IMG/VR virus record: IMGVR_UViG_3300042331_000508
Location: 4,537 to 68,536 of that record
Length of the DNA stretch: 64,000 bases
Origin: a virus
Reading direction: 5' to 3' (one strand)
Each line of letters starts with the position of its first letter. Within the stretch, counting starts at the first letter, position 1. The notes beneath the pieces are model-generated. The model had not been told where the DNA came from, searched no databases, and saw only the letters and a list, made by a program, of their open reading frames with translations. This document shows, piece by piece, positions 3,879-62,489 of this stretch. The position numbers and the translations under genes were made by a program.

Positions 3879-3894
3879 CATAAGAGAGAAGTAA

Positions 3895-6711: not shown

Positions 6712-6713
6712 AT

Positions 6714-7574: not shown

Positions 7575-7577
7575 GCA

Positions 7578-8354: not shown

Positions 8355-8357
8355 GCT

Positions 8358-14623: not shown

Positions 14624-14871
14624 ACCGAGGCATGTTGGCAGATGCGTATCGAGCGGCCAAAGAGGTGGGGCAGTGGGCCGCGTCGGGATTCCCGATGACG
14701 GAACTTTCAAAGAACCGTCTAGCGATTTGCGAGGCATGTCCGCACTTCAGTGGCGGTCGCTGCTCAATCTGTGGCTGCTACATGGCGGCGAAGACGATGA
14801 TGTCCACCTCGAAGTGTCCGATCGGCAAATGGGATGCGGTAAGCGGGGCTGGTAAGTGTTGCCACGGTTGA
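14620..14871 (+). CDS. Small Cys-rich protein (DUF6171-like)
   Basis: RLAICEACP..RCSICGCYM.AKT..CPIGKW. Confidence 0.65.
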   Translation: MNRGMLADAYRAAKEVGQWAASGFPMTELSKNRLAICEACPHFSGGRCSICGCYMAAKTMMSTSKCPIGKWDAVSGAGKCCHG

Positions 14872-14887
14872 CATTGCGCCCATTGCA

Positions 14888-18200: not shown

Positions 18201-18204
18201 CATT

Positions 18205-20785: not shown

Positions 20786-21093
20786 CCGAAGCAAAGCAAA
20801 GATGGGTGGAAAACCTACCCGTGAATTTAGCCCAGTTGGCTGAGGCGCAGGGGATCAGCTACGAGAGCGCGCGGACTTTGGCGAGGATGCCCGGCTTCCC
20901 GAAGGTCGGGCGGTTGATTTGGCCGGAAGATTTTCTTCGGTGGCGCAAGGAGCTGGTGGTGAAACGCGATCAGCCCAGCCGCCAAGATCATCAAGACGAA
21001 CGCGCTGGTAAATCCGGTGGATCGCGGTCGAAGCATGATTCACCAAACGCATGGCCACGGCGAGCGGCGCGCCTTCGCGCGCAAGCCGCGTAA
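20782..21093 (+). CDS. Excisionase-like HTH protein
   Basis: NLAQLAEAQGISYESARTL..GFP..IWPEDFLRW; convergent with integrase. Confidence 0.6.
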   Translation: MTEAKQRWVENLPVNLAQLAEAQGISYESARTLARMPGFPKVGRLIWPEDFLRWRKELVVKRDQPSRQDHQDERAGKSGGSRSKHDSPNAWPRRAARLRAQAA

Positions 21094-21970: not shown

Positions 21971-22072
21971 GGCGAAAGTGTAGCAAAGTTGTGTAGCAAA
22001 CTGCAACCCGCGCGACCCCATTTCTCTGTGTAAAATCCATGATAAACCGCATAAAAAACAGCAAACCTATAG

Positions 22073-27866: not shown

Positions 27867-28490
27867 ATGGAAGAAAATGATCACAAGCCCCCAACTTTGG
27901 CCGCCATTGCGGCAGATTGGGGCACCAGCGTTGCCTACGTCTCGCGCATGAAGTCTCAAAAAGGCTGTCCGGTCCATAGTCTGGAGGCAGCCCGAGCTTG
28001 GCGAGCCGAGCGCGCCCGGGGCGGTGTGGGGTTCCGGTCCAAGTTGGTCAGATCAGACGAGCAAGATGCTCCTCCAGTTCGTTTGCCCCGCCGCAAAAGC
28101 CTCAAAGGCATGGAACAAAGTCTGGCAGCGTCAATTGAGATTGAGGAACAGGCCAAGTATCTGGTTGAGGCAGCGATTGCGGCCGATTCGGTAGAAAAGC
28201 TGCCGCTACTCCTCCAGACCTACAACAAGGCGAAGGAAGGTCGCATGGCGTCCGAAAAAATGGTTTTGGAGATTCAAGAGAAAGCGCGGGTCTTGGTCCC
28301 ATTGGATGAAGCCCGAGAGATGTTTGCCAAAGGCTGGGGAGCCCTGCTGGCTCGGCTGCGCGGCCTTCCAACCATTCTGGCCCCCAAGGTCAATCCGCAA
28401 GACGATGTGACTGCGGCAGAGATCATCCGTCAGGACATCGAGAGGGCCATTGCTGATGGCCAGAAAGCCTATGAGCAAGCGCTGGCATGA
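27867..28490 (+). CDS. terS: Terminase small subunit (Nu1-like)
   Basis: N-terminal HTH (LAAIAADWGTSVAYVSRMK..GCP), LVPLDEA, LRGLP..LAP; directly upstream of terL. Confidence 0.8.
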   Translation: MEENDHKPPTLAAIAADWGTSVAYVSRMKSQKGCPVHSLEAARAWRAERARGGVGFRSKLVRSDEQDAPPVRLPRRKSLKGMEQSLAASIEIEEQAKYLVEAAIAADSVEKLPLLLQTYNKAKEGRMASEKMVLEIQEKARVLVPLDEAREMFAKGWGALLARLRGLPTILAPKVNPQDDVTAAEIIRQDIERAIADGQKAYEQALA

Positions 28491-30285
28491 CGAGCCGCTG
28501 AAGAAGCTGGAGGCCTTCTGCAAGGACACCCTTGCTCCAGCCCCAGACTTGCCAGTGTGGAAGTGGTGCGAACAGCATTGCTACATTCGTGGAGACAACG
28601 AGGGCGGGTATTCCACCACCCTGACTCCCTACGTGCGGGAACCCTTGGATTGTTTCAAGGACAAGAAGATCGAGGACTTGGTGCTTTGCTTTGCGGCCCA
28701 AACCGCCAAGACCACCGTTGTCATGGGAGGCACCGCTTGGCTGCTGGTAAACGATGCCAGAGACACCCTTTGGGTTATGCCAGACAAAGAGCTGGGAGGC
28801 TCTTTTTCCAGAAACAGGTGGATTCCGTGGGTCGATGATTGCCGCCCTTTGGCTGACTTGAAGCCATCCAACCGCAATCTGTTCACGACCAGAGAGCAGC
28901 GCTTTGCTCGATGCGCGCTTTTTTTCGTCGGTTCGAACAGCGCCAGCCAGATTTCCTCCCGTCCTTGCGGCGTGGTTCTGATGGATGAGGTCGACAAGTT
29001 CGGCCTTCGCAATGACAGGGAGGCCGGTGCCCTCAAGAATGCCGAGGAGCGGACGAAAAGCTTTAATTTCCCGAAACGTATTAAAACTTCGACCCCTACC
29101 ATTTACTATGGGGAAATCTGGCAAGAGTTTATCAAGGGGGATGCCCGATACTTCTACGTGCCTTGTCCATGCTGCAAGACCCCGATCCGGCTTTTGTGGA
29201 AGCAAATCCGGTGGTGGAAAGATGATCCTGAAGAGGCCAAAACCGATGGGGACTGGGATATGGAAAAAGTGCGAAAGAACACGCACTACGTCTGCCAAGA
29301 GTGCAACCAAAGCTTCACGGATGCCTACAAGACCGGCATGTTGCAGGCTGGTGAGTGGCGCCCGAGCAATCCGCAAGCGGAACCCACCCGCCGCAGCTAC
29401 CATTTGAGTGCGCTCTATGCGCCCTGGAAGCAAACCCGCTGGGGCAACTTGGCTGTTCGATGGCTTCAGAGCAAAGCCACGATCGACGGACGCCAGAATT
29501 TCATCAATTCGACGCTGGCAGAGCCATTCGACGGCGAAAACGCCTACGATGAGGATCCGATAGCCACCGAGGCCTACATACCGGCAGACATCCAGCGCGA
29601 CCGCGTGCCGTTGATGACGGTGGACGTTCAGCAGCCGGGATTTTGGTGTGTGATCCGCGCTTGGGCCAAGTCTGGAGAGAGTTGGTTGCTGCATGCGGGG
29701 TATGTCCACACCATCGAGGAGCTGGACGAGCTGCAAAGGAAGTATGCCGTGGAAGCAAATCACGTGCTGATAGACGTCGCTGACCAAACCAACCTCGTTT
29801 GCAAATGGGTTGTTGATAGAGACTGGCGCGGTGCGTGGGGCAGTAGCAAAAATGGCTTCGTCCACAGCCTGCCCAACGGCAACAAAGTGCAAAAACTGAT
29901 TTCCCCAGTCCAGTGGCGTGATCCGCAGCTCGGAACTGTCCACCAGAGCGAGCGAAACCCCCGCGCCCGCTACGTTTTCTGGGCCAACGACCCCGTGAAA
30001 GACATTTTGGCGGTGATGAGGCATCAAGAGCCCCGCCGCTGGCACGTCCATGGCGATATTCCTCCCGAATACACCAAGCATTTGAACGCCGAGATCAAAA
30101 TCATGCGCCAGAACCCGCGCACCGGCCGTTATCAGGTGGTTTGGAAGCAAGTCCGCCGCGCCAACCACCTTTTAGACTGTGAGGCCATGCAAATCGTCTG
30201 CGCTTTGGCAGGAGGCCTGATTGTGGAGGACAACGAGAAGTATGCCAACGCGCAGGGGGCGCTCAAGCTGCACGAAATGAATTGA
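28471..30285 (+). CDS. terL: Terminase large subunit, lambda GpA family
   Basis: TPYVREPLD, AAQTAKT, LMDEVDK, TSTPT, YVPCPCC, SYHLSALYAPW, TVDVQ, NHLLDCE. Confidence 0.95.
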   Translation: MSKRWHDEPLKKLEAFCKDTLAPAPDLPVWKWCEQHCYIRGDNEGGYSTTLTPYVREPLDCFKDKKIEDLVLCFAAQTAKTTVVMGGTAWLLVNDARDTLWVMPDKELGGSFSRNRWIPWVDDCRPLADLKPSNRNLFTTREQRFARCALFFVGSNSASQISSRPCGVVLMDEVDKFGLRNDREAGALKNAEERTKSFNFPKRIKTSTPTIYYGEIWQEFIKGDARYFYVPCPCCKTPIRLLWKQIRWWKDDPEEAKTDGDWDMEKVRKNTHYVCQECNQSFTDAYKTGMLQAGEWRPSNPQAEPTRRSYHLSALYAPWKQTRWGNLAVRWLQSKATIDGRQNFINSTLAEPFDGENAYDEDPIATEAYIPADIQRDRVPLMTVDVQQPGFWCVIRAWAKSGESWLLHAGYVHTIEELDELQRKYAVEANHVLIDVADQTNLVCKWVVDRDWRGAWGSSKNGFVHSLPNGNKVQKLISPVQWRDPQLGTVHQSERNPRARYVFWANDPVKDILAVMRHQEPRRWHVHGDIPPEYTKHLNAEIKIMRQNPRTGRYQVVWKQVRRANHLLDCEAMQIVCALAGGLIVEDNEKYANAQGALKLHEMN

Positions 30286-48508: not shown

Positions 48509-48790
48509 ATGGTAAGAACGTGGACTTGCACGGTGTCCAATACACCGCCGTTTCTCAAGATCACCGGCTGGAAGCCGATCGTGGATGACGCTGCCACGGG
48601 GGCTGCCGCCAAGAGCTACCGTCAACAGCACGGGATCAAGGGCCGTGCCGTGGCGCGCAAAATGGGTATGTGTCCCTCGCATTTTTCCGAAATCGAGTCC
48701 GGCAAGCGGGGGTGGAACGGCGACAAAGCGGTGCGCTACTGGCACGCCGTGGAAGCCCTGAAAGGAGAATCAAATGGCACGGCAAACTGA
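48509..48790 (+). CDS. XRE-family HTH protein
   Basis: RQQHGIKGRAVARKMGMCPSHFSEIESGKR. Confidence 0.7.
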   Translation: MVRTWTCTVSNTPPFLKITGWKPIVDDAATGAAAKSYRQQHGIKGRAVARKMGMCPSHFSEIESGKRGWNGDKAVRYWHAVEALKGESNGTAN

Positions 48791-49898
48791 AGTTCTCAAG
48801 GATTACGCCGGTCACGGGCTGGAATTCAAGGCTGGCGAGCGGTATCTTTTGGAAGATCCGACTCTGGCGCATCTGCTGATGATGGGGGTGGCAGGCAAGG
48901 TCACGGATGTCGAGATTCAGAGTGATCCGTCCAGCAAGGATGTTCTGATCACTCGCAGCGGCGGCTTCGGTGACATTCTATTTATGACGCCGACGATCAA
49001 GGCGTTTCTCGCTTTGGGCAGCAAAGTCACCGTTTGCTGCCATCGCAATTACGCTGATGCCCTCTCGGCTTTTCCGCAAATAGGTTACATTCCATATCCG
49101 ATGCGGATGGGCCAAGTGATGCCCTACGGCTACCATGTTTGGCTGGAGGGGGTCATTGAGTTTGCGCCGGAACCAGAGCGACACGCCGTGGACCTGATCG
49201 CGGAGCGAGCTGGCGTGGAACTGGTCAGCAAAGAGCTTCTTTACTCCGTTCGCCCTGCCGATATGCAGTGGGCCAAGGAGAACTTTCCCCGCAATCGCAA
49301 GCCACGGGTAGGCGTGCAGCTCATGGCCTCCGCGCCGACGCGCACGTATCCGCACGAACTTATGCACAAAGCCCTGCTGGGTCTGCTCATGCATAATGTG
49401 GAAATCGCGATCTTTGGAAGTCCCGGCAGCGTAGAACTGACCGACGTCAATCCCAGTGTCTACAACATCGCCGCCGCCGCCAAGACGTTCGGGCAATCCT
49501 GCGCGGTATTGGCTGATTGCGATGTTGTCCTCGCGCCGGATTCGGCCATGTGCCATGTGGCCGGTGCGCTGGGCCTGCCGACTGTTGCTTTGTATGCGCC
49601 ATTTCCTTGGAAAGCGCGCACGGCTTATGCGCCGTCCATCCGTGCCTTGAGTGGCAATCTTAAGTGCGCGCCTTGCTATTGGCATGGACGCGGCTCGGCT
49701 TACCCGGCGCACGGGCCTTGCGCGCAGACGGGGAAATGCGAAGCGCTGGCGACAATCGAGCCGGAACGCATCGTGCGCGAAACTATGCGACTGCTGGAGG
49801 AGAAACGGACTCGGGGGGGTCAAGTGGCTTCTGGCAGCGCGGGCGGCATCTCATCTGGGGATGAGGTGCCGCCCACAACTTTGCCTTACGAGCTATGA
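48774..49898 (+). CDS. Glycosyltransferase family 9 (heptosyltransferase-like)
   Basis: RSGGFGDILFMTP, ASAPTRTYP, CDVVLAPDSAMCHVAGALGLPTVALY, CAPC. Confidence 0.88.
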   Translation: MARQTEVLKDYAGHGLEFKAGERYLLEDPTLAHLLMMGVAGKVTDVEIQSDPSSKDVLITRSGGFGDILFMTPTIKAFLALGSKVTVCCHRNYADALSAFPQIGYIPYPMRMGQVMPYGYHVWLEGVIEFAPEPERHAVDLIAERAGVELVSKELLYSVRPADMQWAKENFPRNRKPRVGVQLMASAPTRTYPHELMHKALLGLLMHNVEIAIFGSPGSVELTDVNPSVYNIAAAAKTFGQSCAVLADCDVVLAPDSAMCHVAGALGLPTVALYAPFPWKARTAYAPSIRALSGNLKCAPCYWHGRGSAYPAHGPCAQTGKCEALATIEPERIVRETMRLLEEKRTRGGQVASGSAGGISSGDEVPPTTLPYEL

Positions 49899-50706: not shown

Positions 50707-51306
50707 ATGTTTGCACTCGAAACCATCTATCGTCGAATCTGGGGCGGCCAGCCGCGCTTGGTCGCTGAAGTAGGAGTCAATGAACCGGAGAAATGCTCCG
50801 TAGCGCCGTGGCTGCGCAAGGGCGTGGAAGGCATCTTGGTCGAACCGCTGCCTTGGTGCTGCGCCCGCTTGCGCGAAGCATTTCCGACCGCCAAGGTTGT
50901 TGAAGGCGTGGTAGGAGCGACCAGAGGCGAGGTCAAACTCTACGACCGTGGCGAGGGGAGCTGGATCGAAGACGTTCCCAAAGGCCAAGCGCCGGATGAG
51001 CACCACAAACATTCGGCCATGAATCGCGACAGCTTCGATCCGCAGTTTGTGCGGACAGTGACCAGCTATCCTTGGTGGAGCTTGGAAAAGCACCAGCTTG
51101 ATGTGCTTTGCGTGGATACCGAAGGCGCCGAATGGTTTGTCATCCGCGACATGCGGACGGAGCCAAAGCTGATCCGGCTGGAGATGCACTTTACCCACAC
51201 CGGATGGCGCAACCCGTTCTATCAGGAAATTTGCGACAGCCTTCATTCTTGCGGCTACGAGATTTTGGGCGAGGATGTCAGCGATATTTTATGGGCGAAA
51301 TACTAA
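50707..51306 (+). CDS. FkbM-family methyltransferase
   Basis: AEVGVN, GILVEP, LDVLCVDTEGAEWFVI, PKLIRLE. Confidence 0.8.
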   Translation: MFALETIYRRIWGGQPRLVAEVGVNEPEKCSVAPWLRKGVEGILVEPLPWCCARLREAFPTAKVVEGVVGATRGEVKLYDRGEGSWIEDVPKGQAPDEHHKHSAMNRDSFDPQFVRTVTSYPWWSLEKHQLDVLCVDTEGAEWFVIRDMRTEPKLIRLEMHFTHTGWRNPFYQEICDSLHSCGYEILGEDVSDILWAKY

Positions 51307-51911: not shown

Positions 51912-53648
51912 GTGGAGCAAAAAATCACATTTTTCGACAAAGCACTGGCCGCCGTCTCACCTGAGGCGGCTGTTCGTCGTTTAACGGCTCGCTACTGGCT
52001 GACCGAATTTGAGCGCGGGGATTGGAAGGCCGAGCAGCGGGGTTACAGCGGTGGCCGCAGCCGTCACGCCGCCTCCGAATCCGCTCGCCGCAACCGGCAG
52101 CGGATTGACCGCGTTTGGGAGGCACGGGACATGGAGGAGAAGTTTCCGTTTGTGCGCGGCCTGCTCGACAAGCTGGTGCAATATACTTGCGGGTCAATTA
52201 CTTACCAAAGCCGCACGGGAGACACGGAGATGGATGCGGCCTATCAAGACTACTTCCACGATTGGTGCGGACGAGCGGATCTAACCGGACGCTTCCGCTT
52301 GGTGGAGCTTCTTCAGCTCGGTTTTCGCGGCATGGTGAGGGATGGCGAGTATGGCTGGATTCTTGTTCCTGACGGCGACGAATTGCGCCTCCAGCCCATC
52401 GAAGCCGACCGGATCGGCGGCCCCGACCGGATTAATTCCGACGAGTCCAATATCCAGGGCATCAAGATCGACGAATACGGAAGGGTGGTGGGTTACGAGA
52501 TCTACAAGCGATCCCGCATGGGCCAATACAACTTGGAGATGGAGATCGGGCCGGATTCCTTCCTGCACCTTTTCCGTCCCATCCGCGCCGACCAATATCA
52601 CGGCGAGAGTTGGATGAGCTGCGCCCTTCCGCACGCGCGGGACATTCACGAACTTTTTGGCTTTGAGAAGCAGGCCATGAAATTCGCGGCGGCGTTTGCG
52701 GGCTTTATTCGCCGCAAGGACAGCGTTCCGACCGGCTCCGGTCTGGATTGGCTGACGAAGAAAGACGGATCGGGCTCAACCAATTCGATGCGAGTCGAGG
52801 CCGGAATGATCAAGCGGCTTCAGGAAGGCGAAGACATTACGTTCCCCGGCAGCACGGGCCGTCCTTCTGCCAACCTCATGCAGTTTGTCCAGATTCTCGT
52901 CAGGGAAATCGCCTTGGGCATGAACTTGCCCTACGGGTTTGTTTACGACATGGCCCAGCTTGGCGGCGTGACCGCCCGCATCGAAGTCATGCAGGCCATG
53001 CGCGCCATCGCGACTTACCAGCAGCTCATGGTGGACAAGGTGCTCAATCGGCTGCGCGACATCGTGATCGAGCGCGGCATCGCCATGGGCGCGGTTCCGT
53101 GGCATCCCGATTGGCAGCAGGGTAGCTGGAACTTCGGCGCCCGCTTGACCGGCGATACCGGCAACTATGTTCAAGAACAACTGCTCCTTTTGCAGAACGG
53201 CCTGATCACGCGCGGCAAGATTGTCGAGGAGATCGACGGCAGCAGCAGCTTGGAAATCAGCCGCACCTTGGCTCGCGAAGTCAAAGAGCTTCAGGAAGTT
53301 GCGGCCCAGAGCGCCGTGCCAATCGAACTCATCTCGCCGTCGCTCAGCAATGCGACCCAGATGCTGGCGGCCATCAACATGCCGCCCGCCCCGCCCCCGC
53401 CAGCGCCCAAGGGCTACATTGCCAAGGTCGGCGAGAAGCCCGCCGCGCAACTCATCGAAGTGCTGACGGCCTATGCCGAAGGCAAGCTGGAGCGCGAAAG
53501 CGCGATCCAAAGCCTGGTCTTCGTTTACGGCGTCCCGCGCACCAAGGCCGAAGCCCTTGTGCCGGAAAAGCGCCCCAAAGTGGAGCAAACTAATGGAAGC
53601 GGAAATTCAAACAGCGGAAGCGTCACAGCAAGCGGCGGCGATGAATGA
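51912..53648 (+). CDS. Portal protein, lambda family
   Basis: RDGE, LQPIEADRI, GIKIDEYGRVVGY, HLF..RADQYHGES, IALGMNLPY. Confidence 0.92.
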   Translation: MEQKITFFDKALAAVSPEAAVRRLTARYWLTEFERGDWKAEQRGYSGGRSRHAASESARRNRQRIDRVWEARDMEEKFPFVRGLLDKLVQYTCGSITYQSRTGDTEMDAAYQDYFHDWCGRADLTGRFRLVELLQLGFRGMVRDGEYGWILVPDGDELRLQPIEADRIGGPDRINSDESNIQGIKIDEYGRVVGYEIYKRSRMGQYNLEMEIGPDSFLHLFRPIRADQYHGESWMSCALPHARDIHELFGFEKQAMKFAAAFAGFIRRKDSVPTGSGLDWLTKKDGSGSTNSMRVEAGMIKRLQEGEDITFPGSTGRPSANLMQFVQILVREIALGMNLPYGFVYDMAQLGGVTARIEVMQAMRAIATYQQLMVDKVLNRLRDIVIERGIAMGAVPWHPDWQQGSWNFGARLTGDTGNYVQEQLLLLQNGLITRGKIVEEIDGSSSLEISRTLAREVKELQEVAAQSAVPIELISPSLSNATQMLAAINMPPAPPPPAPKGYIAKVGEKPAAQLIEVLTAYAEGKLERESAIQSLVFVYGVPRTKAEALVPEKRPKVEQTNGSGNSNSGSVTASGGDE

Positions 53649-53772
53649 GTTGCGGTCCCTCGTGGACCGCGCTGACAAGCTGACGATGGACTTGGCCATT
53701 GCCCGCCGTGATCTGCAGCAGCTTCGGAACGGGATGCAGATGTTTATTCACAGGTGGGGGACAGTGGTATGA
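53593..53772 (+). CDS. Small coiled-coil protein
   Basis: 59 aa; stop overlaps ATG 53769. Confidence 0.45.
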   Translation: MEAEIQTAEASQQAAAMNELRSLVDRADKLTMDLAIARRDLQQLRNGMQMFIHRWGTVV

Positions 53773-56700
53773 AATTGGTGCGCCACGAATTGGCCGGAAA
53801 GTTTCGTATTTCGCGGGAATACATTAAGTGGAAGTCGCAGGCGGCAACAATGACTCCCGCTGACTTTCTGAAAAAGGCTTTGCCTTTTGGGAAAGGAGGC
53901 GCGCATGGACCGGCTGTAGAGAAATACCGAAAGGCTATCCGGTCAGGGGAAAAGATTGATGCGCCGCAACTTTTTGTAAACCGCGCGCGCGGCGGCGGAT
54001 TCAATCATCCGGCGAATTTCAAAGTCACCGGCCATGAGGGAAGGCATCGCATGGTGGCTGCACAGCAAGAGGGCATCACTAAGGTTCCGGTGGAAATCGT
54101 GGCCTACCAAGAGCCGCGCTTTCCCGATCGTTCCCCAGCGTTGCGTAAAGCCATGAAGATGCCGAGGCACTTCAAGCCGGAGAACAAAGAAAGCAGGTTT
54201 GCCCGAATTGACAGGGGACGACTTGAGATGAGTAGTCGCCGCCAAGAGCCATTGCCAATTGGATATGAAGCTGGGATTCCACTGACCGGCAGGGTTCCAA
54301 GAGATCGTTGGGTCAAAAAGATCAGAGATGAGGACTTGGACCGGCGCGATGCCAATTTGCTTCGCGCGGGCGTGGCCGGAGCAGTCGGAGGCGCACTCTT
54401 ACGTAAGAGTTACCGGCCCGGAAAACTTATTCCAAGCGGCGCAAAAGTAGGTCCTGCGCGCGCCTATTTGCGCGCAATGCCGACGGGCAGTGCCGCAGGT
54501 TTCGGCGCGGCGGCCGGAATTGCTGGCGTTTTAGGCATTCGACAGTTGACCAAGCACCGCCGCGATCCTTACGGAGAGCGTCAGAGAGGAGACAAAAAGG
54601 CCGAAAGCGTTCCGGCTCTTGCCGGTATAGGGGCAGCTGGATATGGCGCTTACAGGATCTTACGTAAGAAGTTCAAGATGTCGGATGGACGTTTTGAATT
54701 TGCCGAAAAGAAAAAGAAGGAGATAAACCCATATCTAACCGCGGGCCTTTCTGGTGCTGCATCCGGCGCCGGTCTTGGCGGCCTAGCCCTGCTTCGCAGG
54801 GGAGTAGGTCTCGGCGGCGCCCTTAAAACCGGCGCTCTGGGAGCCTTGTTTACCGGCGGGGTTGTTGGCGGTGGCAGCATTGTAGGAAGCAAAATCGTAG
54901 GCGAACCCAAACCCAAGGAGCGCGCGCCCTTTGCCATCCGTTCTGCGGTTGGCGGTGCCATCGTTGGCACGGCGGCGGGGGCTGCGGGCGGCCTGCTCAT
55001 GCGCCGAGTTCCCAAAATTAACCGCAAAATTGCCGGTCTCGCCAATGAATGGCGTCCAGCTAATTGGCTAACCAAATCTGGCTCTCTCAAAGCCACGGGC
55101 GTCGGTGCAGTGGCCGGTGGCGGCTATGGCGCATTTACCGGAGCCGATGAAGGACAACAGGTGGACACCATTCGCAATCTTCGCAAAGACATCCGCAAAA
55201 TGTCGGCAACTAGCCGCACCATTGAACTGGCTGGATGTTGCAACAGCTGCATGAAGCAGCGGATTCAACGCTCGACAGAGTTCATCAAAAGCAAACTCAA
55301 GAACAAAGTAAAGATGCAATCGACTTCTGAAACCATTGAGCTGGAAAAACCGTTTCATGGCTACAACAAGAAGCGCCATGCCAAGACCGGCGGCCTGAAC
55401 GACAGCTACCGCAAGCAATACAACCGAGAAAATGGCAGCAACCTCAAGCGTCCGGTCACGACCGAGCCGAGCAAACTCAAGCCGGGTAGCAAGTCGGCCA
55501 AGCGGCGCGCCAGCTTTTGTGCGCGCATGGGAGGTATGCCGGGTCCTACGAGCAAGGATGGCAAGCTGACGCCAAAGGGAGCCGCTTTGAAGCGGTGGAA
55601 TTGTTCCACCGAGCAAAAACTTGTGGAGTTCGGCATTGCGGGGAGAGCTTTGCAAAAATCGCTCTTCATCGGAAAGGCCAAGCCCCCGATCCGCCTCCCG
55701 TATCCTAAGGGAGAAATCATCAATCCACTTGTTGACAATGTAAAGCACCCGACAAAGCAAGCAATGCTTGTCGATATGCGCAAGCGTCAGCCCTCGTGGA
55801 ACCGTGGCATCAAAAATAAACTTCGCAACTTCGTCGAAGACTATTTGATGTCCGACAAATCGCAGCCGTTGGAATTTCAACTGACGGAAGAACAGCGTCA
55901 GCTGCGCAACGCCGCCCTTATTGCCGGAGGTGTCGCGGTTCCGGTCGGCACGGCCGCTTATCTTGGCATTCGCTCAATCAAAAAAGCCAATGCCGCAAAT
56001 GAGGCCATGTATAAAACCGCGGTTGCCGGTGGGGCCCGCCCCGCCGATGTCCTCGGCAAATACGTCACGGGCAAAGATCGCAAAGTGGCTCGCGGCACCC
56101 CGCTGGCGCTCCCGCCGTCTGAATTCGCCAAACAGTCTTTGCGCAAGCGCGGCCTCGGAGAAAATGGGCCAGCCATTAGTAAAGTAGACCGCTACCGCCG
56201 CATTGCCGCTGAGCGGGCAACCTTAACGTCCCGCAGAGGGCAAATCAGCCTTCCGCTCGGCTCAAAATTGCGCGGGGAACTTATCATGCGCAAGTCCGCC
56301 GATCGCGGCCGCATGCGGGCAGGCAGACAATTGCGAACAGACCGCTCGTCCGCCCTTCGTCCGATCATCAAAGATTCGTTGCCCGAAGGTCGCAAGTCTG
56401 TGCCCGTTGGCAGCAGCAAAGTTACCCTGAAGTCTGGCGCCGTGGGTCAGGTTGAGCATGCCCCACTCATGAGTTCGGAGCGTATGATCTCCACAGGTAA
56501 AAATCTGCAAGAGGGTATTAGAAATCCCGCTTTGCACAGCAGGGGCGAGCGCAAAAATATGATTGCTGCCTTGGCGTTGCTGCGCCGCAAATTCAAATTT
56601 GCATCTAATCAGCCGACTCACGCTTTTGATATTTGGGTCCGCAACGAAAGAACTGGCCGGGCTTCAGGCTTTAAAGACTACGTGCGCGGCGAAGACTTGG

Positions 56701-58139
56701 TGGATCGCGAGGGCCGCGCCGCCACCGTCACACTTCCTACGTTTATCAGCTCTGCTCGCCGTGAAGCAGAAAAAGGATTCCGCACAGCGCGCCGCACCGC
56801 TCGCCTCGGGAAAGATGTGACAGAGGTTGTGCAGGGCAGGAAGACCAAAAAGAGAGAATGGGAGAAGGGATACTTTCAGAAAGCTGTCGCCGTCGCGGCT
56901 CTGACCGGAGGACTTGCCGCCCATGGCCTTGTCATGCGCCGCGCCCTGCGGCCAAACGCCCCCAAATGGGTGAGCGGTTACTCCGATAGCGTGAAGGGCG
57001 CCACCAAATACGTTGTAGATCAGAAGAATAAAATGCGGGATTCGGTAACGAAGAGCGTTGGCCTGATGAGCGCGCGACTCAACCACACGATCGTGCTTTT
57101 TGAGGACAAGCCCAAGAGCACTTGGAAAAAAGCGGCAGGCGTGGCGGCAGGGCTGGGAACAGCCGCGCTCGGCGCGAGCATGCTGCCAGCCGCCTACAAA
57201 ATGGCAAAAATCCAAATTCGCCATGGCGGCAACGTCGCAAAAAGAAAAGTGTTTAAGTCGCCGAAAAGCGACCCCTATAACGGCGGGCGATTTGTTTCTG
57301 ACTATCTCGATGCATCGCAGGCCGCTCTTAACAGCGGCATTCATGGAAAAGTGATTGGCAAAGTTCTGCAAACGGCGAAGCAAAAGCCAGGCGGAATGAC
57401 AGCTGCCGTATTGCGCAAAACGGGCGTTGCCGGAGACGATTTCAAGGTCAGTCATTATGCCAGGTTCAGGGCGGGTCAAAAAGAAGCTCTTGGCCATTGG
57501 GACTGGGAGGTTGGCCAAAGAGTCAAAAGCAAGTCCGGTCACGCCCGGATGGCTAAACGCCGCGATGCGGCTCAGAAAGAAATACAAGACCGACTCTACA
57601 ATTACGGTCAAAATGAAAAAGAGGCCATACGCCATGTAGCGACGAGCACGCGCAACAAGGATGTTCGCGATTATTTCGATCAATTGGCCGCCCATAAAAA
57701 GGGCGCGGCAAAAATGTATGCGCGGCGCCTTGCCTTGGCTCCCGTGGCCGTTGTCGGCGGCGCGGGCGTAGCGGCAGCTTCCAGCCGCAAGGAGTTTTCC
57801 TATTACGATGCAGATATGGAAGGGTGGGATCTTCGCGATGCACGCGGCCGCAGCGCCCGAGTGTTTGCGCCCAACAGCAAGCGGAGGGTCCGGCGAGAAT
57901 CCAAATGGCATGAGCGCAAGCGGAACCAGCGCAATTTGCTTATCGGGGGCGGCCTTGTTGCTGCCATTGGCACTGGCGCAGGCGCCTTGGCCATTGGCGG
58001 GGCGGGCCGCGCAAAAGCAGTAAGTGCAGTCAAAAACCGCATGATGGGCATGATCAACAGGGTTCGGCGCAACCGTAGCATTCGGCCCAAGCCGAGCAAA
58101 GAGTGGCAGCCCACGCTGCTTCCCGCCGCGACGGCATAG
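53769..58139 (+). CDS. 1,456-aa modular basic protein: ParB-like N-terminal module, DUF6321-like module, Gly/Ala-rich hydrophobic modules; putative internal virion polyprotein
   Basis: GHEGRHRMVAA..KVPV; GGLN..YNRENGSNLK.PV..RRASFCARM..ALKRWNC; repeated (M/F)S-x-(I/L/V)E(F/L) linkers; between portal and protease. Confidence 0.7.
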   Translation: MKLVRHELAGKFRISREYIKWKSQAATMTPADFLKKALPFGKGGAHGPAVEKYRKAIRSGEKIDAPQLFVNRARGGGFNHPANFKVTGHEGRHRMVAAQQEGITKVPVEIVAYQEPRFPDRSPALRKAMKMPRHFKPENKESRFARIDRGRLEMSSRRQEPLPIGYEAGIPLTGRVPRDRWVKKIRDEDLDRRDANLLRAGVAGAVGGALLRKSYRPGKLIPSGAKVGPARAYLRAMPTGSAAGFGAAAGIAGVLGIRQLTKHRRDPYGERQRGDKKAESVPALAGIGAAGYGAYRILRKKFKMSDGRFEFAEKKKKEINPYLTAGLSGAASGAGLGGLALLRRGVGLGGALKTGALGALFTGGVVGGGSIVGSKIVGEPKPKERAPFAIRSAVGGAIVGTAAGAAGGLLMRRVPKINRKIAGLANEWRPANWLTKSGSLKATGVGAVAGGGYGAFTGADEGQQVDTIRNLRKDIRKMSATSRTIELAGCCNSCMKQRIQRSTEFIKSKLKNKVKMQSTSETIELEKPFHGYNKKRHAKTGGLNDSYRKQYNRENGSNLKRPVTTEPSKLKPGSKSAKRRASFCARMGGMPGPTSKDGKLTPKGAALKRWNCSTEQKLVEFGIAGRALQKSLFIGKAKPPIRLPYPKGEIINPLVDNVKHPTKQAMLVDMRKRQPSWNRGIKNKLRNFVEDYLMSDKSQPLEFQLTEEQRQLRNAALIAGGVAVPVGTAAYLGIRSIKKANAANEAMYKTAVAGGARPADVLGKYVTGKDRKVARGTPLALPPSEFAKQSLRKRGLGENGPAISKVDRYRRIAAERATLTSRRGQISLPLGSKLRGELIMRKSADRGRMRAGRQLRTDRSSALRPIIKDSLPEGRKSVPVGSSKVTLKSGAVGQVEHAPLMSSERMISTGKNLQEGIRNPALHSRGERKNMIAALALLRRKFKFASNQPTHAFDIWVRNERTGRASGFKDYVRGEDLVDREGRAATVTLPTFISSARREAEKGFRTARRTARLGKDVTEVVQGRKTKKREWEKGYFQKAVAVAALTGGLAAHGLVMRRALRPNAPKWVSGYSDSVKGATKYVVDQKNKMRDSVTKSVGLMSARLNHTIVLFEDKPKSTWKKAAGVAAGLGTAALGASMLPAAYKMAKIQIRHGGNVAKRKVFKSPKSDPYNGGRFVSDYLDASQAALNSGIHGKVIGKVLQTAKQKPGGMTAAVLRKTGVAGDDFKVSHYARFRAGQKEALGHWDWEVGQRVKSKSGHARMAKRRDAAQKEIQDRLYNYGQNEKEAIRHVATSTRNKDVRDYFDQLAAHKKGAAKMYARRLALAPVAVVGGAGVAAASSRKEFSYYDADMEGWDLRDARGRSARVFAPNSKRRVRRESKWHERKRNQRNLLIGGGLVAAIGTGAGALAIGGAGRAKAVSAVKNRMMGMINRVRRNRSIRPKPSKEWQPTLLPAATA

Positions 58140-58159
58140 TTGACTAGAAAGAGCAATTT

Positions 58160-58792
58160 ATGGACGAGATCAAAAGCAAGCTGGTTGCCTTGGAGGCAAA
58201 AATTGATGAGAAGCTCTTTGCCACTTATCGTGGCCCTGACGGTCGTTTGTATCAGGAAGAAGATGGCTCGCTTCTGAAAACCGGCGCCGCTGGCGTTGGC
58301 GTTGGAGCCGCGGGGTATGGAGCCGTTAAAGCGGATCGCGCCATCATGGGAAAATATGGCCGCCGCAATTTGCTGCCGGTCGGTGACATGGAGCCCGGCA
58401 GCCCACGCTCCATTGCCAACCGGGCCGCAGCTCCTCTGCGTCCCACGTTCGGATCTGACGGTCCTCGCTTTACTTCCGAGGTCAATCGCCGCGAGGCCTA
58501 TGGCTCTATGCTGAACAGCCTGCGCAACAAAGCGGAAGCAGGTGCCTCTCAAGCAGGAGCTATCGGTCAAAAAATTCAAGACCGCGTCGGCGGCTATGCT
58601 GCTCGCGCTGGAGAGATTGCTCAAGAAATGCCCGGGCGCTTCAAGAGAGCAGGGCGGCTTGGCCCCAAAATGGTCAAGTCAGAAGGCCTTATGGGCGGTC
58701 TCCGCGGCATCGCCCGAATTCTTACGGCAGGCAGGCTAAAGTTTTCCGCAAAAGATCGTTTGGTAAAGCTGACGGAACAGCTGGATCGCTAA
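58160..58792 (+). CDS. Basic Gly-rich protein, putative internal virion protein
   Basis: 210 aa; EKLFA and LKFSA motifs bracket the body. Confidence 0.6.
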   Translation: MDEIKSKLVALEAKIDEKLFATYRGPDGRLYQEEDGSLLKTGAAGVGVGAAGYGAVKADRAIMGKYGRRNLLPVGDMEPGSPRSIANRAAAPLRPTFGSDGPRFTSEVNRREAYGSMLNSLRNKAEAGASQAGAIGQKIQDRVGGYAARAGEIAQEMPGRFKRAGRLGPKMVKSEGLMGGLRGIARILTAGRLKFSAKDRLVKLTEQLDR

Positions 58793-58793
58793 C

Positions 58794-59351
58794 ATGGATT
58801 CCGCGCTTCGCCCAAGCATGATCGAGTTTGTCGATCCGCGCCCGCGCAACGACATGGGTCAGTATGTGGCGAATGAGACGGGCGGGGTGGATCCGAATTC
58901 CATGGCGGCGGCTTACGGGAACGTGGACGCCGAGAAAGCCCAGCGCCGCTCGATGATCGCGCAACGGCTCAAACAAATGATTGGCATGGCCAGTAAGAAA
59001 GAAATGAATGCGTTGACGCCTAAAATTGAGCTTGGAGTTGGCCGTGCCGCTCTAGCCGGAGGCGCCGTGCTCGGCGGCGCGGGACTGATCAAGGGTCTGG
59101 CAGGCGGCGCCGTATTAGGAGGCGCGCTGGGGGCTATCAAGGGCGCATTCAAAAAGGATCAAAGTATTTGGCAGGGCATGAAACAGGGCGCTGGAACCGG
59201 CGCTGGACTAGGCGCTGCTGCGGGCGGTATCGCAGGAGCCGGACTGGGCGCTGGACTAGGCGCTTCATTATTCAAGAGGGGAATGATTAACCCGAAATTC
59301 GCTGGTGCGCGCCCTTGGCCGGGGACTAAATCCGCCGCTTTTGGAGCATGA
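58794..59351 (+). CDS. Glycine-zipper protein, putative internal virion protein
   Basis: 185 aa; SMIEFV, EMNA..KIELG; long GxxxG runs. Confidence 0.6.
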   Translation: MDSALRPSMIEFVDPRPRNDMGQYVANETGGVDPNSMAAAYGNVDAEKAQRRSMIAQRLKQMIGMASKKEMNALTPKIELGVGRAALAGGAVLGGAGLIKGLAGGAVLGGALGAIKGAFKKDQSIWQGMKQGAGTGAGLGAAAGGIAGAGLGAGLGASLFKRGMINPKFAGARPWPGTKSAAFGA

Positions 59352-59842
59352 CGGAAAAGCAACGGCGCGGCGTGACGATCAAAACGCCACAGGGGGATAG
59401 TGCGCTGAGCCTGCTTTACAAGTGGGAGCAGTTGGCGAACACGGGCTTCTCGCTCGACAACTTGTATGTGAAGCATTCCCCGGGCAAGGGCTTGGGGGTC
59501 TTTGCCCGCCGTGAAATTGCGGAGGACGAATACATCGAGTTCTGTCACTGCATCACTTGCGATACGCCACGCCAGTTTTTGGCTGAGCCCCAGATCAGCC
59601 GCTACGCTTACGGCAACGACAATATCGCCATGCTCCTTCTGGGATTCGGGTCGATCTACAATTCAGCGCAAAGCGCTGAGACGGCCAACGCGCAGTATGC
59701 GGTGTTTTCCCAGAACAAGCTGGTGGTGTTCTGGGCCTCCCGCCTAATCGAAGCTCATGAGGAAATCTGCGTCTACCACGGAGAGGGATTCTTCAACAAG
59801 TGGTGCAAGCCATCGCAACCGATGGTGGCCATGACGGTCTAA
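59348..59842 (+). CDS. SET-domain protein (lysine methyltransferase-like)
   Basis: VKHSPGKGLGVFARREI..EYIE, LGFGSIYNS..ANA, ASRLIEAHEEICVYHG. Confidence 0.8.
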   Translation: MTEKQRRGVTIKTPQGDSALSLLYKWEQLANTGFSLDNLYVKHSPGKGLGVFARREIAEDEYIEFCHCITCDTPRQFLAEPQISRYAYGNDNIAMLLLGFGSIYNSAQSAETANAQYAVFSQNKLVVFWASRLIEAHEEICVYHGEGFFNKWCKPSQPMVAMTV

Positions 59843-59862: not shown

Positions 59863-61128
59863 ATGGGCTCAGAGATCATTCAATTCAACTGTAACACGAT
59901 CAGCGGTCGTGTGGACCGCGACAGCGGCGTTATTCGCGGCGTAGCTGTTATTACCGGCGGCGTCACAGCGCGCGGTCACAATCTGGAGGTCGATGACAAA
60001 ACGCTCAAACAGATTGTCGAGTGCGGTAACGACAAGGGGCGGGTCCAGGTCAAGCTGAACCACAAGGATCCGCAAGCCTTACAATCCATTTGCGGGTTTT
60101 TGGAGGGATTTCGTCGCGAGGGCAACAAGGTTGTCGCCGATTGGCATCTCTTAAAGTCCCACGAGGAATACGACAAGATCATCGAGCGGGCAGAGCGGAT
60201 GCCCGACTGCTTCGGCTTGAGCGCGGCATTCGCCGGACCTCCCAAGGGAGAAAAGCTCAAAAACGGCAAAGCCGCGGCGCGTTGCGAAGAACTCCTCGCC
60301 GTCGATTGCGTGCCGATGCCTGCGGCTAATCCAGCGGGCCTTTTTTCGGCGCTAGTTGACAGCGAGCAAAAAGAAAACCTTATGGACCAAAAAGAAGCCA
60401 ACCAAGCAACAGAGCCGACGCTGACTGACGTTATCGCCGCTCTCCAACAGGTGCAGGAAACGGTCAACGCTGTGGCTAATCGCCAAGCCGAGATCGACGC
60501 CCTTATTGAAGCCAACACGCCCCTTTCCGCCGAGGAACTGGAGCAGCTTGCCGCGATGAGCGACGAGGAGTTGGCCGCGCAAGGGATTGACCGCACCGAA
60601 GTCAACGAAGCCATCGCCGCTTACAACGCCGCCGTCGAGGCTGGTGAAGGCGACGAAGCGGAAGGCGAGGCTGGCGAAGCCGAAGCGGCTCCCGCTGAAG
60701 CTGCCGCACCTGCCGGTGCCGCGCTGTCCGCGCTGCGCAAGCGTGTGGTTGAACTTGAGGCCAAGCTGGCCGGTGAAAAGGAAGACAAGGAATCCGCCGA
60801 GATCATGCATGCGTTCGATGTGCTTGAGCAGAAGCAGGCGGCCCTGATCGCGCAGAACGAAGCCCTTCAGCGGACCATCCGCCTCCAAGGCATCAAAGCC
60901 GCGACTCCTGGGACCGAGTCTTTCCGCATGTTCTCCGCCGATCAAGGCGACGACAAGGTGACTGAGTTTGACCGCTTGGTGAGCGCGAAAGCCACCGAGC
61001 TGGAATCGCAGGGTAAAGCGAAGGCGGCGGCTCGCGCCGAAGCCATCCGCTTCACGATGAAAAGCAATCCCCGCTCGTATGCGGAACACAACGCCGCCCG
61101 CGGCATCGTGACACTGGCCGACAAATAA
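59863..61128 (+). CDS. Prohead protease / scaffold fusion
   Basis: VIRGVAVIT.G..ARGH, KLNH, FGLS, AVDCV..PAANPAGLFS; acidic coiled-coil C-terminal half. Confidence 0.85.
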   Translation: MGSEIIQFNCNTISGRVDRDSGVIRGVAVITGGVTARGHNLEVDDKTLKQIVECGNDKGRVQVKLNHKDPQALQSICGFLEGFRREGNKVVADWHLLKSHEEYDKIIERAERMPDCFGLSAAFAGPPKGEKLKNGKAAARCEELLAVDCVPMPAANPAGLFSALVDSEQKENLMDQKEANQATEPTLTDVIAALQQVQETVNAVANRQAEIDALIEANTPLSAEELEQLAAMSDEELAAQGIDRTEVNEAIAAYNAAVEAGEGDEAEGEAGEAEAAPAEAAAPAGAALSALRKRVVELEAKLAGEKEDKESAEIMHAFDVLEQKQAALIAQNEALQRTIRLQGIKAATPGTESFRMFSADQGDDKVTEFDRLVSAKATELESQGKAKAAARAEAIRFTMKSNPRSYAEHNAARGIVTLADK

Positions 61129-61139
61129 GGAGCAAATTT

Positions 61140-61493
61140 ATGGCATACATCGACGACAGCAAGGCGAGTTTCCTCGCACTCGGGACCAGCGGAATCGCCG
61201 GCAATGTGCGAGTCAAACTCGACAGCACCGGAAAGATCACTCTCGCGGGTCAAGGCGACCAGGAGATCGGCGTGACCGATTTCAAGGTCAACGACAACAC
61301 AACTCCGGTCAAAGTTCACCTGACCAACGGTGGCGGATCGCTGGAAGTCATTGCAGGCAGCGCAGTCGCTGTCGGCAGCGTCGTCAAGCGTGCGGCCAAC
61401 GGCAAGGTGGCTGCAACCGGCGGCACCGATTACGGCATCGCCGCGCAAGCCGCTTCGGCTGACGGCGATACGATCGAAGTTTTCCCGCTCTAA
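61140..61493 (+). CDS. Capsid decoration/cement protein (DUF2190-like)
   Basis: 117 aa before MCP; IGVT, ANGKV, GIAAQAASADGDTIEV. Confidence 0.75.
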   Translation: MAYIDDSKASFLALGTSGIAGNVRVKLDSTGKITLAGQGDQEIGVTDFKVNDNTTPVKVHLTNGGGSLEVIAGSAVAVGSVVKRAANGKVAATGGTDYGIAAQAASADGDTIEVFPL

Positions 61494-61511: not shown

Positions 61512-62489
61512 ATGTATACAAATGCTGACGCACTAATCCGCCCGGAACTCCAGGCGGTTGTTCAAGAGGCCTTGGAAGCTGAAAAGTTTTTCATTGCCGA
61601 CATGGTTTTCCCTCCTTTCGCGAGCAACACCAAAACTGGCGAATATAGGAAAATCAAGAAGGGCACGGGCAACATCTTGGCGAGCAACAGCTCCGACGAG
61701 ACGCTGCGTGCACCCCGCACGGCCTACAAAGAGGTCGACAGAACTTATGAAAAAGCGAGCTACGCTTGCCGCGATCGCGGTTTGACCGAAGTGGTCGATG
61801 ACAGCGATCAGCACGACTTGGCCCGCTTCTTCGACGCCGAGCAGGTGAGCACCAAGCTCCTCCTCTCCAACATCCTCCGCGCTCAAGAAGCGCGCGTGGC
61901 CGCCAAGGTCATGAACGAGGCAACCTGGGGCAAGGTGGATGCATCGGTGGCTTACACTGAAGCGAACATCAACACGCTTGACGTTCCGCTTGACTTCGAA
62001 GAGGCCATCGCGCGAGTCCAGAAACGCGGGGAGATGGTCAACACGATCATCATGAGCCGCAACATTTGGAAGCGTCTGCGCCGCTCGACTCAGCTGCGCA
62101 AATACATCTACGGCGACAATGCCGGTGGAAAAATCATCACCAAGGACGTTTTCTTGGCGACCTTCCAAGACAGCGCTCCGATCACCAACCTTTTCATCGC
62201 CGAGGCTGTTGTCTCGACCGCGAAGAAAGGCGAGGTCGTGGCTGACAACAAACTCAGCTACATCTGGGGCGACGATTATGTTTGGATGGGTTCGATCGCT
62301 GGCGGAGATCCGTCGATGGGCGGCGCGGGCCGCACCATCTACTGGGCCGAGGACGTCGAGTTCAACTATGTGGTGGAGAGCTTCCGCGACGAAGCGCGCC
62401 GCAGCGACGTGATCCGTGTTCGTCAGTATAACGAAGAGCACGTGGTGAACGAGTGTGCCGGAACGCTGATCAAGACGAACTACGCATAA
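61512..62489 (+). CDS. Major capsid protein
   Basis: 325 aa; FIADMVFP, LRAP, E.RVAA, GRT..W, DVIRVR; position and terminator. Confidence 0.88.
   Translation: MYTNADALIRPELQAVVQEALEAEKFFIADMVFPPFASNTKTGEYRKIKKGTGNILASNSSDETLRAPRTAYKEVDRTYEKASYACRDRGLTEVVDDSDQHDLARFFDAEQVSTKLLLSNILRAQEARVAAKVMNEATWGKVDASVAYTEANINTLDVPLDFEEAIARVQKRGEMVNTIIMSRNIWKRLRRSTQLRKYIYGDNAGGKIITKDVFLATFQDSAPITNLFIAEAVVSTAKKGEVVADNKLSYIWGDDYVWMGSIAGGDPSMGGAGRTIYWAEDVEFNYVVESFRDEARRSDVIRVRQYNEEHVVNECAGTLIKTNYA

Follow-up and report, generated by a model that had tools for sequence, protein, structure and literature searches.

What is a single gene doing with about eleven dissimilar basic modules when it sits among the genes that build a phage head? 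The question is raised by a 64,000-nucleotide stretch of virus DNA, called the window here and the source of all positions below, which comprises bases 4537-68536 of the 68,536-bp record IMGVR_UViG_3300042331_000508. Between the genes for the portal and the prohead protease lies an open reading frame (ORF) of 1,456 amino acids (aa), P0001 (53769..58139 on the + strand), that encodes a leader and about 11 basic modules joined by about 10 short junction tags. An original prediction, made from the DNA letters, took it for a cassette of separate cargo proteins, joined by repeated two-site linkers, freed by the prohead protease and ejected with the DNA. That interpretation is partly supported. The P0001 family is modular, its modules are shuffled at the tags, the tag is family-wide and is shared with the protease and its scaffold, and the protease has the fold of a head-maturation enzyme. 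P0001 is probably a capsid-packaged head-module polyprotein that is processed at its tags by a gp21-type protease, although for cleavage, the exact bond, packaging and ejection we infer from sequence patterns.

To briefly describe the polyprotein, its frame is open from a GTG at 53754 (1,461 aa) or an ATG at 53769 (1,456 aa), and AGGTGGGGG is located 8 to 16 nucleotides upstream of the ATG. All 11 modules between linkers are basic (isoelectric point [pI], 9.75-11.9), in keeping with the basic, dissimilar modules first described, and 7 of the 11 contain Gly/Ala-rich hydrophobic stretches. The nine linkers quoted originally are all present, and all lie, like the other P0001 features, on the + strand. 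They are tag 1, SRFARIDRGRLEMS (aa 147-160, 54192..54233); tag 2, KFKMSDGRFEFA (aa 305-316, 54666..54701); tag 3, RKMSATSRTIELA (aa 481-493, 55194..55232); tag 4, KVKMQSTSETIELE (aa 518-531, 55305..55346); tag 5, WNCSTEQKLVEFG (aa 614-627, 55593..55634); candidate tag 6, YLMSDKSQPLEFQ (aa 697-709, 55842..55880); candidate tag 7, KFKFASNQPTHAFD (aa 946-959, 56589..56630); tag 8, GLMSARLNHTIVLFE (aa 1103-1117, 57060..57104); and tag 9, SRKEFSY (aa 1344-1350, 57783..57803), which precedes the universal last module. Two elements had been overlooked. One is an additional tag, LGSKLRGELIMRK (aa 833-845, 56250..56288), which is the best P0001 match of the family profile described below (5.7 bits) and coincides with a homology start at residue 829 in 5 relatives. 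The other is an N-terminal leader, MKLVRHEL (53769..53792), which aligns with the ...QKEF tag end that stands before the same module in the relative P0027 (alignment A3). Further weak tag sites possibly exist at about residues 507 and 790. Several tags have recognizable orthologues: tag 1 is conserved as F[AS]RIDRGxVEM in 8 relatives, tag 2 as K[FL]K[ML][SA]D[GA]R[FI]EF in 7, and candidate tag 7 as KYKF[SA]RKGxVH[SA]FE in P0011 and P0013, while at the position of tag 9 nearly every relative has a full tag. Tag 8 is the P0001 tag nearest the family consensus (5.3-6.7 bits with the family profile).

The only domain of P0001 that Pfam recognizes is DUF6321 (aa 543-615, 55380..55598; PF19846, 51 bits against a cut-off of 28.5), which directly follows tag 4, is present in 25 of 73 relatives and varies in its position along the chain. 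A PHROG scan of P0001 returned just families of unknown function over the DUF6321 stretch, a tblastn search of 50,697 phage records matched P0001 over aa ~499-624 alone (36 records), and Pfam and NCBIfam scans of P0001 found no peptidase families. Between tags 3 and 4 sits a Cys-rich mini-module, GCCNSCMKQ... (aa 494-517, 55233-55304), and very small Cys-rich modules of this kind, flanked by tags, may be zinc knuckles. The N-terminal module (aa 6-146, 53769-54191) is present in just 3 family proteins. It contains GHEGRHRMVAAQ, with an HExxH string, HEGRH, at aa 94-98, and GHEGRHRMVAAQ resembles the GERRxRAA box of ParB. There is also a ParB_N lead for this module (Atlas score 0.90, rank 7), an AlphaFold2 (AF2) model built from 2 sequences reached a predicted local distance difference test (pLDDT) score of 39.5, and a profile search of the PDB with it gave a chance-level match alone.

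Do the modules behave as separate units? The relatives of P0001 bear on this question. Single-protein pattern scans of viral contigs, with P0001 or the capsid protein as query, found no relatives, and a search of 5.8 billion proteins found 43 long homologues of 800 to 2,050 aa, 2 of them near-identical fragments of P0001. The last module, M9 (aa 1351-1461, 57804..58139), is the signature of the family. It consists of a GWDLRDARGRSARVF core and a Gly-rich hydrophobic segment, with 16 invariant columns in its alignment (A1), and that alignment retrieved 59 viral loci and 8 genome loci, 7 of the latter from Verrucomicrobiota (one of them, L066, a prophage-like region of the isolate Verrucomicrobium sp. 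BvORR034) and 1 from a Planctomycetaceae metagenome-assembled genome. Among 1.84 billion cluster representatives, M9 occurs in 280 clusters at E<=1e-3. Its core lies within 160 aa of the C terminus in 128 of 135 proteins, and 93 of the 136 M9-bearing proteins are at least 600 aa long.

Compared by BLASTP with its long relatives, P0001 shows homology in blocks whose order differs from protein to protein. The DUF6321 block lies ahead of module M2 (block 315-487) in P0018, P0020, P0021, and P0022; M8 (block 1113-1330) comes first in P0026; and M2 (block 304-494) precedes M1 (block 154-301) in P0046 and P0047. M9 (block 1350-1415) is last in every relative. The family is thus a module mosaic, in which modules have been gained, lost and permuted between phages, an outcome in favor of the original prediction on a comparison put forward with it. 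The domain content of the relatives varies too. An InPase domain is found in 6 of 73 relatives and an LRAT domain above cut-off in 1, and there are weak matches to LRAT, GNAT, ligase-OB and zinc-peptidase families. At least three recurrent types of HExxH module (RRHE[AI]VHS, YLHEAGHAK, and RAHE[AV]GHV) occur in the polyproteins of 15 of 73 relatives (P0027, P0029, P0030, P0031, P0032, L012, L025, L029, and L018; P0011, P0014, and P0023; P0013 and P0043). Pfam recognizes just one of these, weakly (Zn_peptidase_2, 4.8e-4, in P0011); as cargo, these modules may be peptidases of the zincin type. When shorter forms standing on their own were sought, 10 proteins of 329 to 794 aa came up, all on contigs of less than 10 kb; these are probably fragments, so the search says nothing about split forms.

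Where do the blocks break? In comparisons of P0001 with 73 non-redundant relatives, 54% of the 380 internal endpoints of high-scoring segment pairs fell within 15 aa of the nine linkers. Random placement of the linkers put 17% of endpoints that close, and 54% was reached by 1 of 10,000 permutations. Taken in order, the linkers have 11, 45, 39, 16, 15, 0, 1, 14, and 65 endpoints within this distance, which supports seven of the nine; the claim that homology breaks at the linkers is thus backed for tags 1 to 5, 8, and 9 but not for the two candidates, 6 and 7. Further homology boundaries at about residues 748, 829, 906, 970, 1045-1060, and 1135-1142 indicate more module borders than the nine linkers account for. 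The sequences that flank the breaks are also informative. Among the relatives listed, M2 is preceded by x-x-F in 20 of 22 and starts as ...F-x-EKK...NPY, and the DUF6321 module starts as ...x-(E/Q)-F/L-(E/D)-KPF regardless of its upstream neighbor; M1 starts as ...F-x(4-8)-GIPLTG. In other words, the second word of the tag precedes homologous modules no matter what lies before it. Phe is the most constant residue of the tag, with the residue before it varying (E, Q, K, R, F, S, or H).

The tag itself can be recognized across the family. A profile was trained solely on the tag that stands before the last module (44 sequences) and was then iterated three times. Even without iteration, it made 100 matches of at least 8 bits in the 94,836 aa of 74 non-redundant polyproteins; shuffled sequences gave 0, and the rest of this phage's proteome (18,881 aa) gave 1. 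After three iterations, the family tag is about 13 aa long with the consensus GLSAKLRRLREFD, and the 74 polyproteins have 132 matches of 8 bits or more, while shuffles have 0; with the threshold lowered to 6 bits, these numbers become 149 and 9. In an independent set of 111 family proteins less than 70% identical to the training proteins, the count was 79 against 2. At least one tag was found in 54 of the 74 proteins and at least two in 32, with a maximum of 7 and a median spacing of 196 aa. The first word of the tag is hydrophobic-Ser/Ala-Ala-Lys/Arg; the second, a few residues on, is hydrophobic-x-(Glu/Gln/Lys)-Phe/Leu, often with Asp or Glu next. Protein-level conservation of the tags extends to proteins that are less than 50% identical. 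A search of the DNA for repeats found no nucleotide sequence common to the tags, which places the conservation at the peptide level and does not support recombination through DNA identity at the tags in this genome.

Within the clade of P0001, the tag has a shorter dialect, (M/F/L)-(S/A/Q)-x4-7-hydrophobic-E-(F/L/M). The pattern proposed for it originally, [MF][SA]x4-9[ILVF]E[FLM], occurs at 3 places in P0001, or 4 if Gln is permitted (tags 3 and 6 are among those that fit), whereas 0.08 to 0.11 are expected from shuffles of the same protein. This is an enrichment of about 35-fold, and none of 2,000 shuffles reached the observed number. The pattern is also commoner here than in other ORFs, as had been predicted: its rate is 2.05 to 2.74 per 1,000 aa in P0001 and 0.15 to 0.20 in the rest of the phage proteome (19,583 aa). 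As written, it is clearly enriched yet too narrow, since it fits just three or four of the nine examples given for it. P0001 has 6 copies of the core word [ILVF]E[FLM], with 1.62 expected (P=0.0045), and 6 of the dipeptide EF, with 1.76 expected. A looser version of the pattern is found in 23 of 41 relatives, and it is mainly the closest of these that have orthologous tags.

Tags are not confined to the inside of the chain. Two small ORFs of the cargo type follow P0001 on the + strand, neither belonging to a known family. P0002 (58160..58792, 210 aa, pI 10.2) has a leader, LVALEAKIDEKLFA (58181-58222, aa 8-21), and a C-terminal tag, RLKFSAKDRLVKL (58733-58771, aa 192-204); its homologues start MNxIKSKLVALEAK[LV]DAKLF. 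P0003 (58794..59351, 185 aa) has a leader, MDSALRPSMIEFV (58794-58832, aa 1-13), and an internal tag, KKEMNALTPKIELG (58995-59036, aa 68-81). The words that the original prediction had quoted from P0002, P0003, and the protease P0005 are all there. P0003 starts MDSALRPSMIEF-V-DPRPRN, and its homologues in L006, L009, L025, L026, L027, and L044 start M-(x)-D(P/S/N)RPRN, that is, without a leader. In five other loci (L003, L004, L011, L015, and L020), a Cys-rich mini-module is fused ahead of the P0003 homologue via leaders of the type MSALxPGMIE(F/L), for example, MSALPGTVEL in L011 and LSALRPGMIAF in L004. The mini-module of these loci, which lies just downstream of the polyprotein, reads CWKGCxPVPGKKPYSxGSCxC. 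Among the polyproteins, P0021 and L015 start MSQ(P/A)IGYEGG, the equivalent of M159 of P0001, right after the ...RLE of tag 1. Short family members may open with a tag, as do L022 (MKPSLRRIVEF) and L036 (MNPLLRRAVIEF), and stand-alone ORFs between polyprotein and protease often start M-x(2-6)-RLxELSA(K/R)-x(5-9)-KEF, a pattern seen mostly by eye. By profile, a match of at least 4 bits in the first 40 aa was found in 13 of 145 cargo-region ORFs and in 0 of 321 other ORFs. At the level of sequence, then, a short and dispensable N-terminal leader that ends at the putative protease site is seen in P0003 and in P0021 and L015.

What enzyme might read the tag? P0005 (59863-61128 on the + strand, 421 aa) was identified by fold comparison alone, as sequence searches were negative: residues 1-176 gave just a chance CCDC85 match in Pfam at E<=10, and P0005 has no protease match in PHROG or NCBIfam and none by sequence in the PDB. 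An AF2 model of the domain scored a pLDDT of 81.5 and a predicted template modeling score (pTM) of 0.76. Ranks 1 to 3 of a Foldseek search of the PDB with this model were T4 gp21 (5jbl; E 5.8e-4 to 2.5e-3, probability 1.00, template modeling [TM] score 0.46-0.52), and nearly all remaining matches were herpesvirus proteases (assemblins). In an alignment of the first 176 aa with 33 homologues (A2, 34 sequences), H39, H67, S120, and a PAAN stretch are invariant. The gene lies between the portal and capsid genes and its product has a scaffold fused to it, as befits a prohead protease. As far as the model can tell, the N-terminal domain (aa 1-163, 59863..60351) is a prohead protease with the T4 gp21/HK97/herpesvirus assemblin fold, which bears out the assignment first made for it. 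It is followed by a scaffold-like Ala/Glu-rich tail (60352..61128).

The protease and its scaffold carry the same words as the polyprotein, as the original prediction had noted, and this is true of nearly all relatives. The N-terminal stretch of P0005 has the second word, EIIQF (59872-59889, within aa 4-9), with Phe in 33 of 34 sequences (e.g., EIIQF, LKEFF, and LIEFE). The domain ends in AGLFSA (60334-60351, aa 158-163), conserved across relatives as G-L-F-(E/S)-A. In the scaffold is a two-part site, FRMFSADQGDDKVTEFD (60922-60972, aa 354-370), and all 33 non-identical scaffold tails listed have (R/K)-x-F-S-A and, after 4 to 25 residues, x-E-F-(D/E). This variable spacer is the best support for two separable sites and speaks for the two-site part of the original prediction. 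Examined by eye, covariation between the flavor of the tags and the N-terminal word of the protease was not clean.

How would such a system work? The tags would be leader and junction signals recognized in the procapsid, and the chain would be co-assembled into the procapsid via its tags and/or its invariant last module. There, a protease of the gp21/HK97 type would cut at the tags. The putative cut is probably adjacent to the Phe/Leu/Met in the second word and would follow that residue or else the acidic residue before or behind it; a second putative cut possibly lies before the Ser-Ala of the first word. The modules would become separate basic internal proteins of the ejection type, and the protease would clear its own scaffold through the same code. 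On this model, one tag would lead stand-alone cargo genes, the polyprotein and the prohead protease and would also mark the scaffold tail. The best reading of the system, by analogy, is that it combines capsid-targeting leaders in the style of T4 with the architecture of polyvalent proteins. A bolder version, which we put forward tentatively and hold to be possible rather than probable, makes the tag a portable, two-word “load-and-cut” address: any module behind a tag would enter the procapsid, whether as a separate gene or anywhere in a chain, and the gp21-type protease would excise it by two cuts that discard a linker peptide of about 10 residues.

Several observations weigh against processing at the tags. 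The linkers at 697-709 and 946-959 lack breakpoint support, and the word [ILVF]E[FLM] taken alone is unspecific, with 43 occurrences elsewhere in the proteome, one of them inside the capsid protein. With the iterated profile, P0001's own tags, being of a short and divergent form, score at most 5.7 bits, below the thresholds of 6 to 8 bits, so that their assignment rests on a post hoc pattern, orthologous tags in close relatives and the breakpoints. The profile gives a weak signal for leaders (13 of 145), and it was by eye that most of them were spotted; the identity of P0005, with no sequence-family match, rests on a TM score of about 0.5 and conserved residues. Finally, the conserved words at the end of the protease domain and in the portal could be structural and not cleavage sites. 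The portal (51912..53648 on the + strand, 578 aa) is of the lambda family (Pfam PF05136 Phage_portal_2, 7.6e-47; phrog_21, 6e-46) and has a conserved VPIEL at about aa 477-481, followed by a conserved C-terminal extension of about 100 aa; [VI]P[IVLM]E[LMF] is kept in 56 of 56 portal homologues in related loci. Its C-terminal part (53330-53648 on the + strand; L002-L060) continues after VPIEL with NATQxLAA, a Pro-rich stretch and a conserved domain of about 60 aa. VPIEL resembles the tag ending of this phage, yet it is invariant across tag dialects. It was considered as a cleavage site and set aside; because of that invariance and the conserved domain after it, it may be structural.

Could P0001 instead act whole? 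A serious rival, even if we think it unlikely, is that P0001 stays uncut and is packaged, or otherwise used, as a single very long multi-module ejection or membrane protein, comparable in role to the large internal virion proteins of podoviruses, with the tags serving as junction helices or as peptides that dock to the capsid or scaffold. The hydrophobic residues of the tag fall at i, i+4, i+8, and i+11, as in an amphipathic helix, many tags come after Gly/Ala-rich hydrophobic segments and have basic flanks, like the loops of membrane proteins, and the virion RNA polymerase of phage N4 is packaged unprocessed (PMC5512222). Docking without cleavage is compatible with most of the data. A pure junction role, however, leaves unexplained the tag at the extreme N terminus of stand-alone ORFs and of the protease, the homologues that start exactly after a tag, and the scaffold words that lie 4 to 25 variable residues apart. 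Nor must it be the head protease that cuts. Embedded metallopeptidases were predicted by Iyer et al. to process polyvalent proteins (PMC5512222), and an embedded zincin-like peptidase module, or else a host protease, might do the same here. HExxH strings are indeed present in 16 of 74 non-redundant family members, in the recurrent module types described above, and P0001 has its HEGRH. That motif, though, belongs to the module shared by just 3 family proteins, and a ParB-type box would suit its context as well. Moreover, 58 of the 74 members have no HExxH while tags are family-wide, which makes an embedded zincin unlikely as a general solution, and the tag words in the prohead protease and scaffold point to the head protease; processing by another enzyme is altogether quite improbable.

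One might also regard the tags as scars of gene fusion, in which the start codon and first residues of once-separate genes have been kept and no longer have a function. Several tags do contain Met-Ser or Met-Gln, like an N terminus, and stand-alone ORFs open with the same words. We nevertheless find this scarcely plausible: the tags are conserved as protein at less than 50% identity and with no repeats in the DNA, many have Leu or Phe and not Met at the first position, the second word is kept beside every homologous module whatever its neighbor, and the words recur in the protease and scaffold. Processing of a packaged chain at its tags by the head protease thus remains the reading that we favor.

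The surrounding genome is that of a temperate phage of Verrucomicrobia-type bacteria. The record has an exact terminal repeat of 127 bp, and integrase, endolysin, primase and terminase genes were found. The integrase gene (20855-22021 on the - strand) matches phrog_1 at 1.4e-32, and the terminase genes (27867-30285 on the + strand) are about 22 kb from the portal rather than adjoining it. In the presumed tail region (487-18678 on the + strand), a single one of the 16 large ORFs, 16330-17667, has a PHROG match at 1e-5, to tail-fiber families; the other 15 have none. With an integrase present and 15 of 16 tail ORFs outside PHROG, the phage is temperate and very poorly charted. On the + strand, the head genes follow the order portal, P0001, P0002, P0003, a SET-domain protein, P0005, a cement-like protein and the major capsid protein. 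In the related viral loci examined, the synteny is kept as portal, polyprotein, one to three small ORFs, protease/scaffold, decoration protein and capsid protein (59 syntenic loci, with 47 protease and 45 capsid homologues). The gene for the head decoration or cement-like protein (61140..61493, +), conserved in position in related loci, has a Phage_cement_2 match of 1e-4, below cut-off; the major capsid protein (61512..62489, +, 325 aa) matches phrog_1005 at 4e-32, its 45 homologues lying downstream of polyproteins. The SET-domain protein (59348-59842, +; PF00856 at 5.1e-6, above cut-off) comes after the cargo ORFs and before the protease, with its start overlapping the P0003 stop, and has no tag-like leader. 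The gap that separates portal and polyprotein is occupied by an ORF of 43 aa (MNELRSLVDRADKLT..., 53641-53772, +), with a start that overlaps the last codons of the portal and a stop that overlaps the ATG of the polyprotein (ATGA); in L016, L022, and L036, portal and polyprotein overlap directly and this ORF is absent. Just upstream of the portal are a family-9 glycosyltransferase of the heptosyltransferase type (8.6e-16; 48774-49898, +) and an FkbM-type methyltransferase (1.1e-9; 50707-51306, +), which may be envelope-modifying accessory genes.

Do known phages load their heads in a comparable way? IPIII of T4 is targeted by its first 10 residues, which gp21 then removes, and gp21 has an N-terminal site of its own (PMC9026906). 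The parallels are several: T4 IPI-III and Alt have a short (~10-residue) leader with Met as its first residue and, at its end, a protease site adjoining an acidic residue, placed before unrelated basic proteins of the capsid interior (PMC9026906), and the protease of our phage has the same fold, gp21 being its top structural match, and a word near its own N terminus. T4 differs in that its cargo is encoded by separate genes from whose products an N-terminal propeptide (in Alt, also a C-terminal one) is removed, whereas here up to about 11 modules share one ORF and the tag is repeated internally. The best conserved residue of the tag is Phe here and Glu in T4; most P0001 tags end in hydrophobic-Glu-Phe/Leu/Met, while Phe is the constant of the family. 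No sequence similarity to T4 proteins was found in the PHROG scan. The giant phages phiKZ, 201phi2-1, and SPN3US likewise cut many head proteins at a short motif, some at multiple sites, with a gp21-like protease (gp175 or gp245) (PMC9026906 and PMC10052503). They are myoviruses of 200 kb and more, unlike this 68.5-kb temperate phage with its lambda-type portal. In SPN3US, leaving aside the self-cleavage of its protease, the reported cuts remove N-terminal propeptides, and it is for the breakdown of these propeptides that multiple sites serve (PMC10052503). If a series of modules is released here, enzymes of this class would thus be put to another use. With phiKZ and T4, the resemblance is one of analogy and fold.

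A second parallel is with the polyvalent proteins (PMC5512222), in which unrelated domains are combined in one polypeptide among virion genes, with predicted delivery alongside the DNA. P0001 has multiple unrelated domains in a virion gene context, about 11 modules in permuted order, and the InPase domain, defined in PMC5512222, occurs in its relatives (6 of 73). P0001 itself has DUF6321 as its sole recognized domain, the ParB_N lead coming from the module with the pLDDT of 39.5, and a zincin embedded for self-processing is not seen in it, the sole HExxH being the HEGRH of the rare N-terminal module. PMC5512222 predicts embedded zincin-like peptidases and gives assemblin-like peptidases just as rare C-terminal domains; it already compares polyvalent proteins with the polyproteins of RNA viruses, and the word “linker” is absent from its main text. 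Repeated junction tags in head polyproteins of phages were not described in any paper found by a full-text literature search, though the supplements and FTP files of PMC5512222 lay outside it and could list this family. What sets the present system apart is the implied part of a prohead protease encoded separately and of a tag repeated at the junctions, along with modules that are mostly small and basic or of membrane type and not enzymes.

P22 gp7, gp16, and gp20 and the core proteins of T7 are internal to the capsid, leave it with the DNA and insert into the cell envelope. They are products of separate genes and are not known to share a tag or to be released by proteolysis. The glycine-rich hydrophobic segments of P0001 would suit an ejection role like theirs; the PHROG scan detected no sequence similarity to P22 or T7 ejection proteins. 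Seen together, the repeated junction-tag polyprotein is a variation on two known themes, the leader-tagged cargo of T4 type and the polyvalent proteins.

What would it mean if the tags are cut? Bacterial viruses would have their own equivalent of viral polyproteins, with the protease of capsid maturation as the enzyme, and one gene would deliver some ten internal proteins per head in stoichiometric amounts. The capsid-targeting leaders of T4 and the polyvalent proteins, hitherto treated separately, would be linked. The peptide code would be a defined one that can be directly tested, and it might find use in packing capsids with foreign proteins, for which the T4 leader is already employed. If the tag is in addition a load-and-cut address, it would let phages shuffle their head cargo freely at the tags and would amount to a natural, programmable system for loading capsids, distinct in its logic from the embedded peptidases of polyvalent proteins. 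The family is small, at 280 clusters, and the value of the finding lies in the general principle rather than in a single phage. For the many uncultured phages of Verrucomicrobia whose head regions match no known families, cleavage at the tags would also provide a means of annotating cargo genes.

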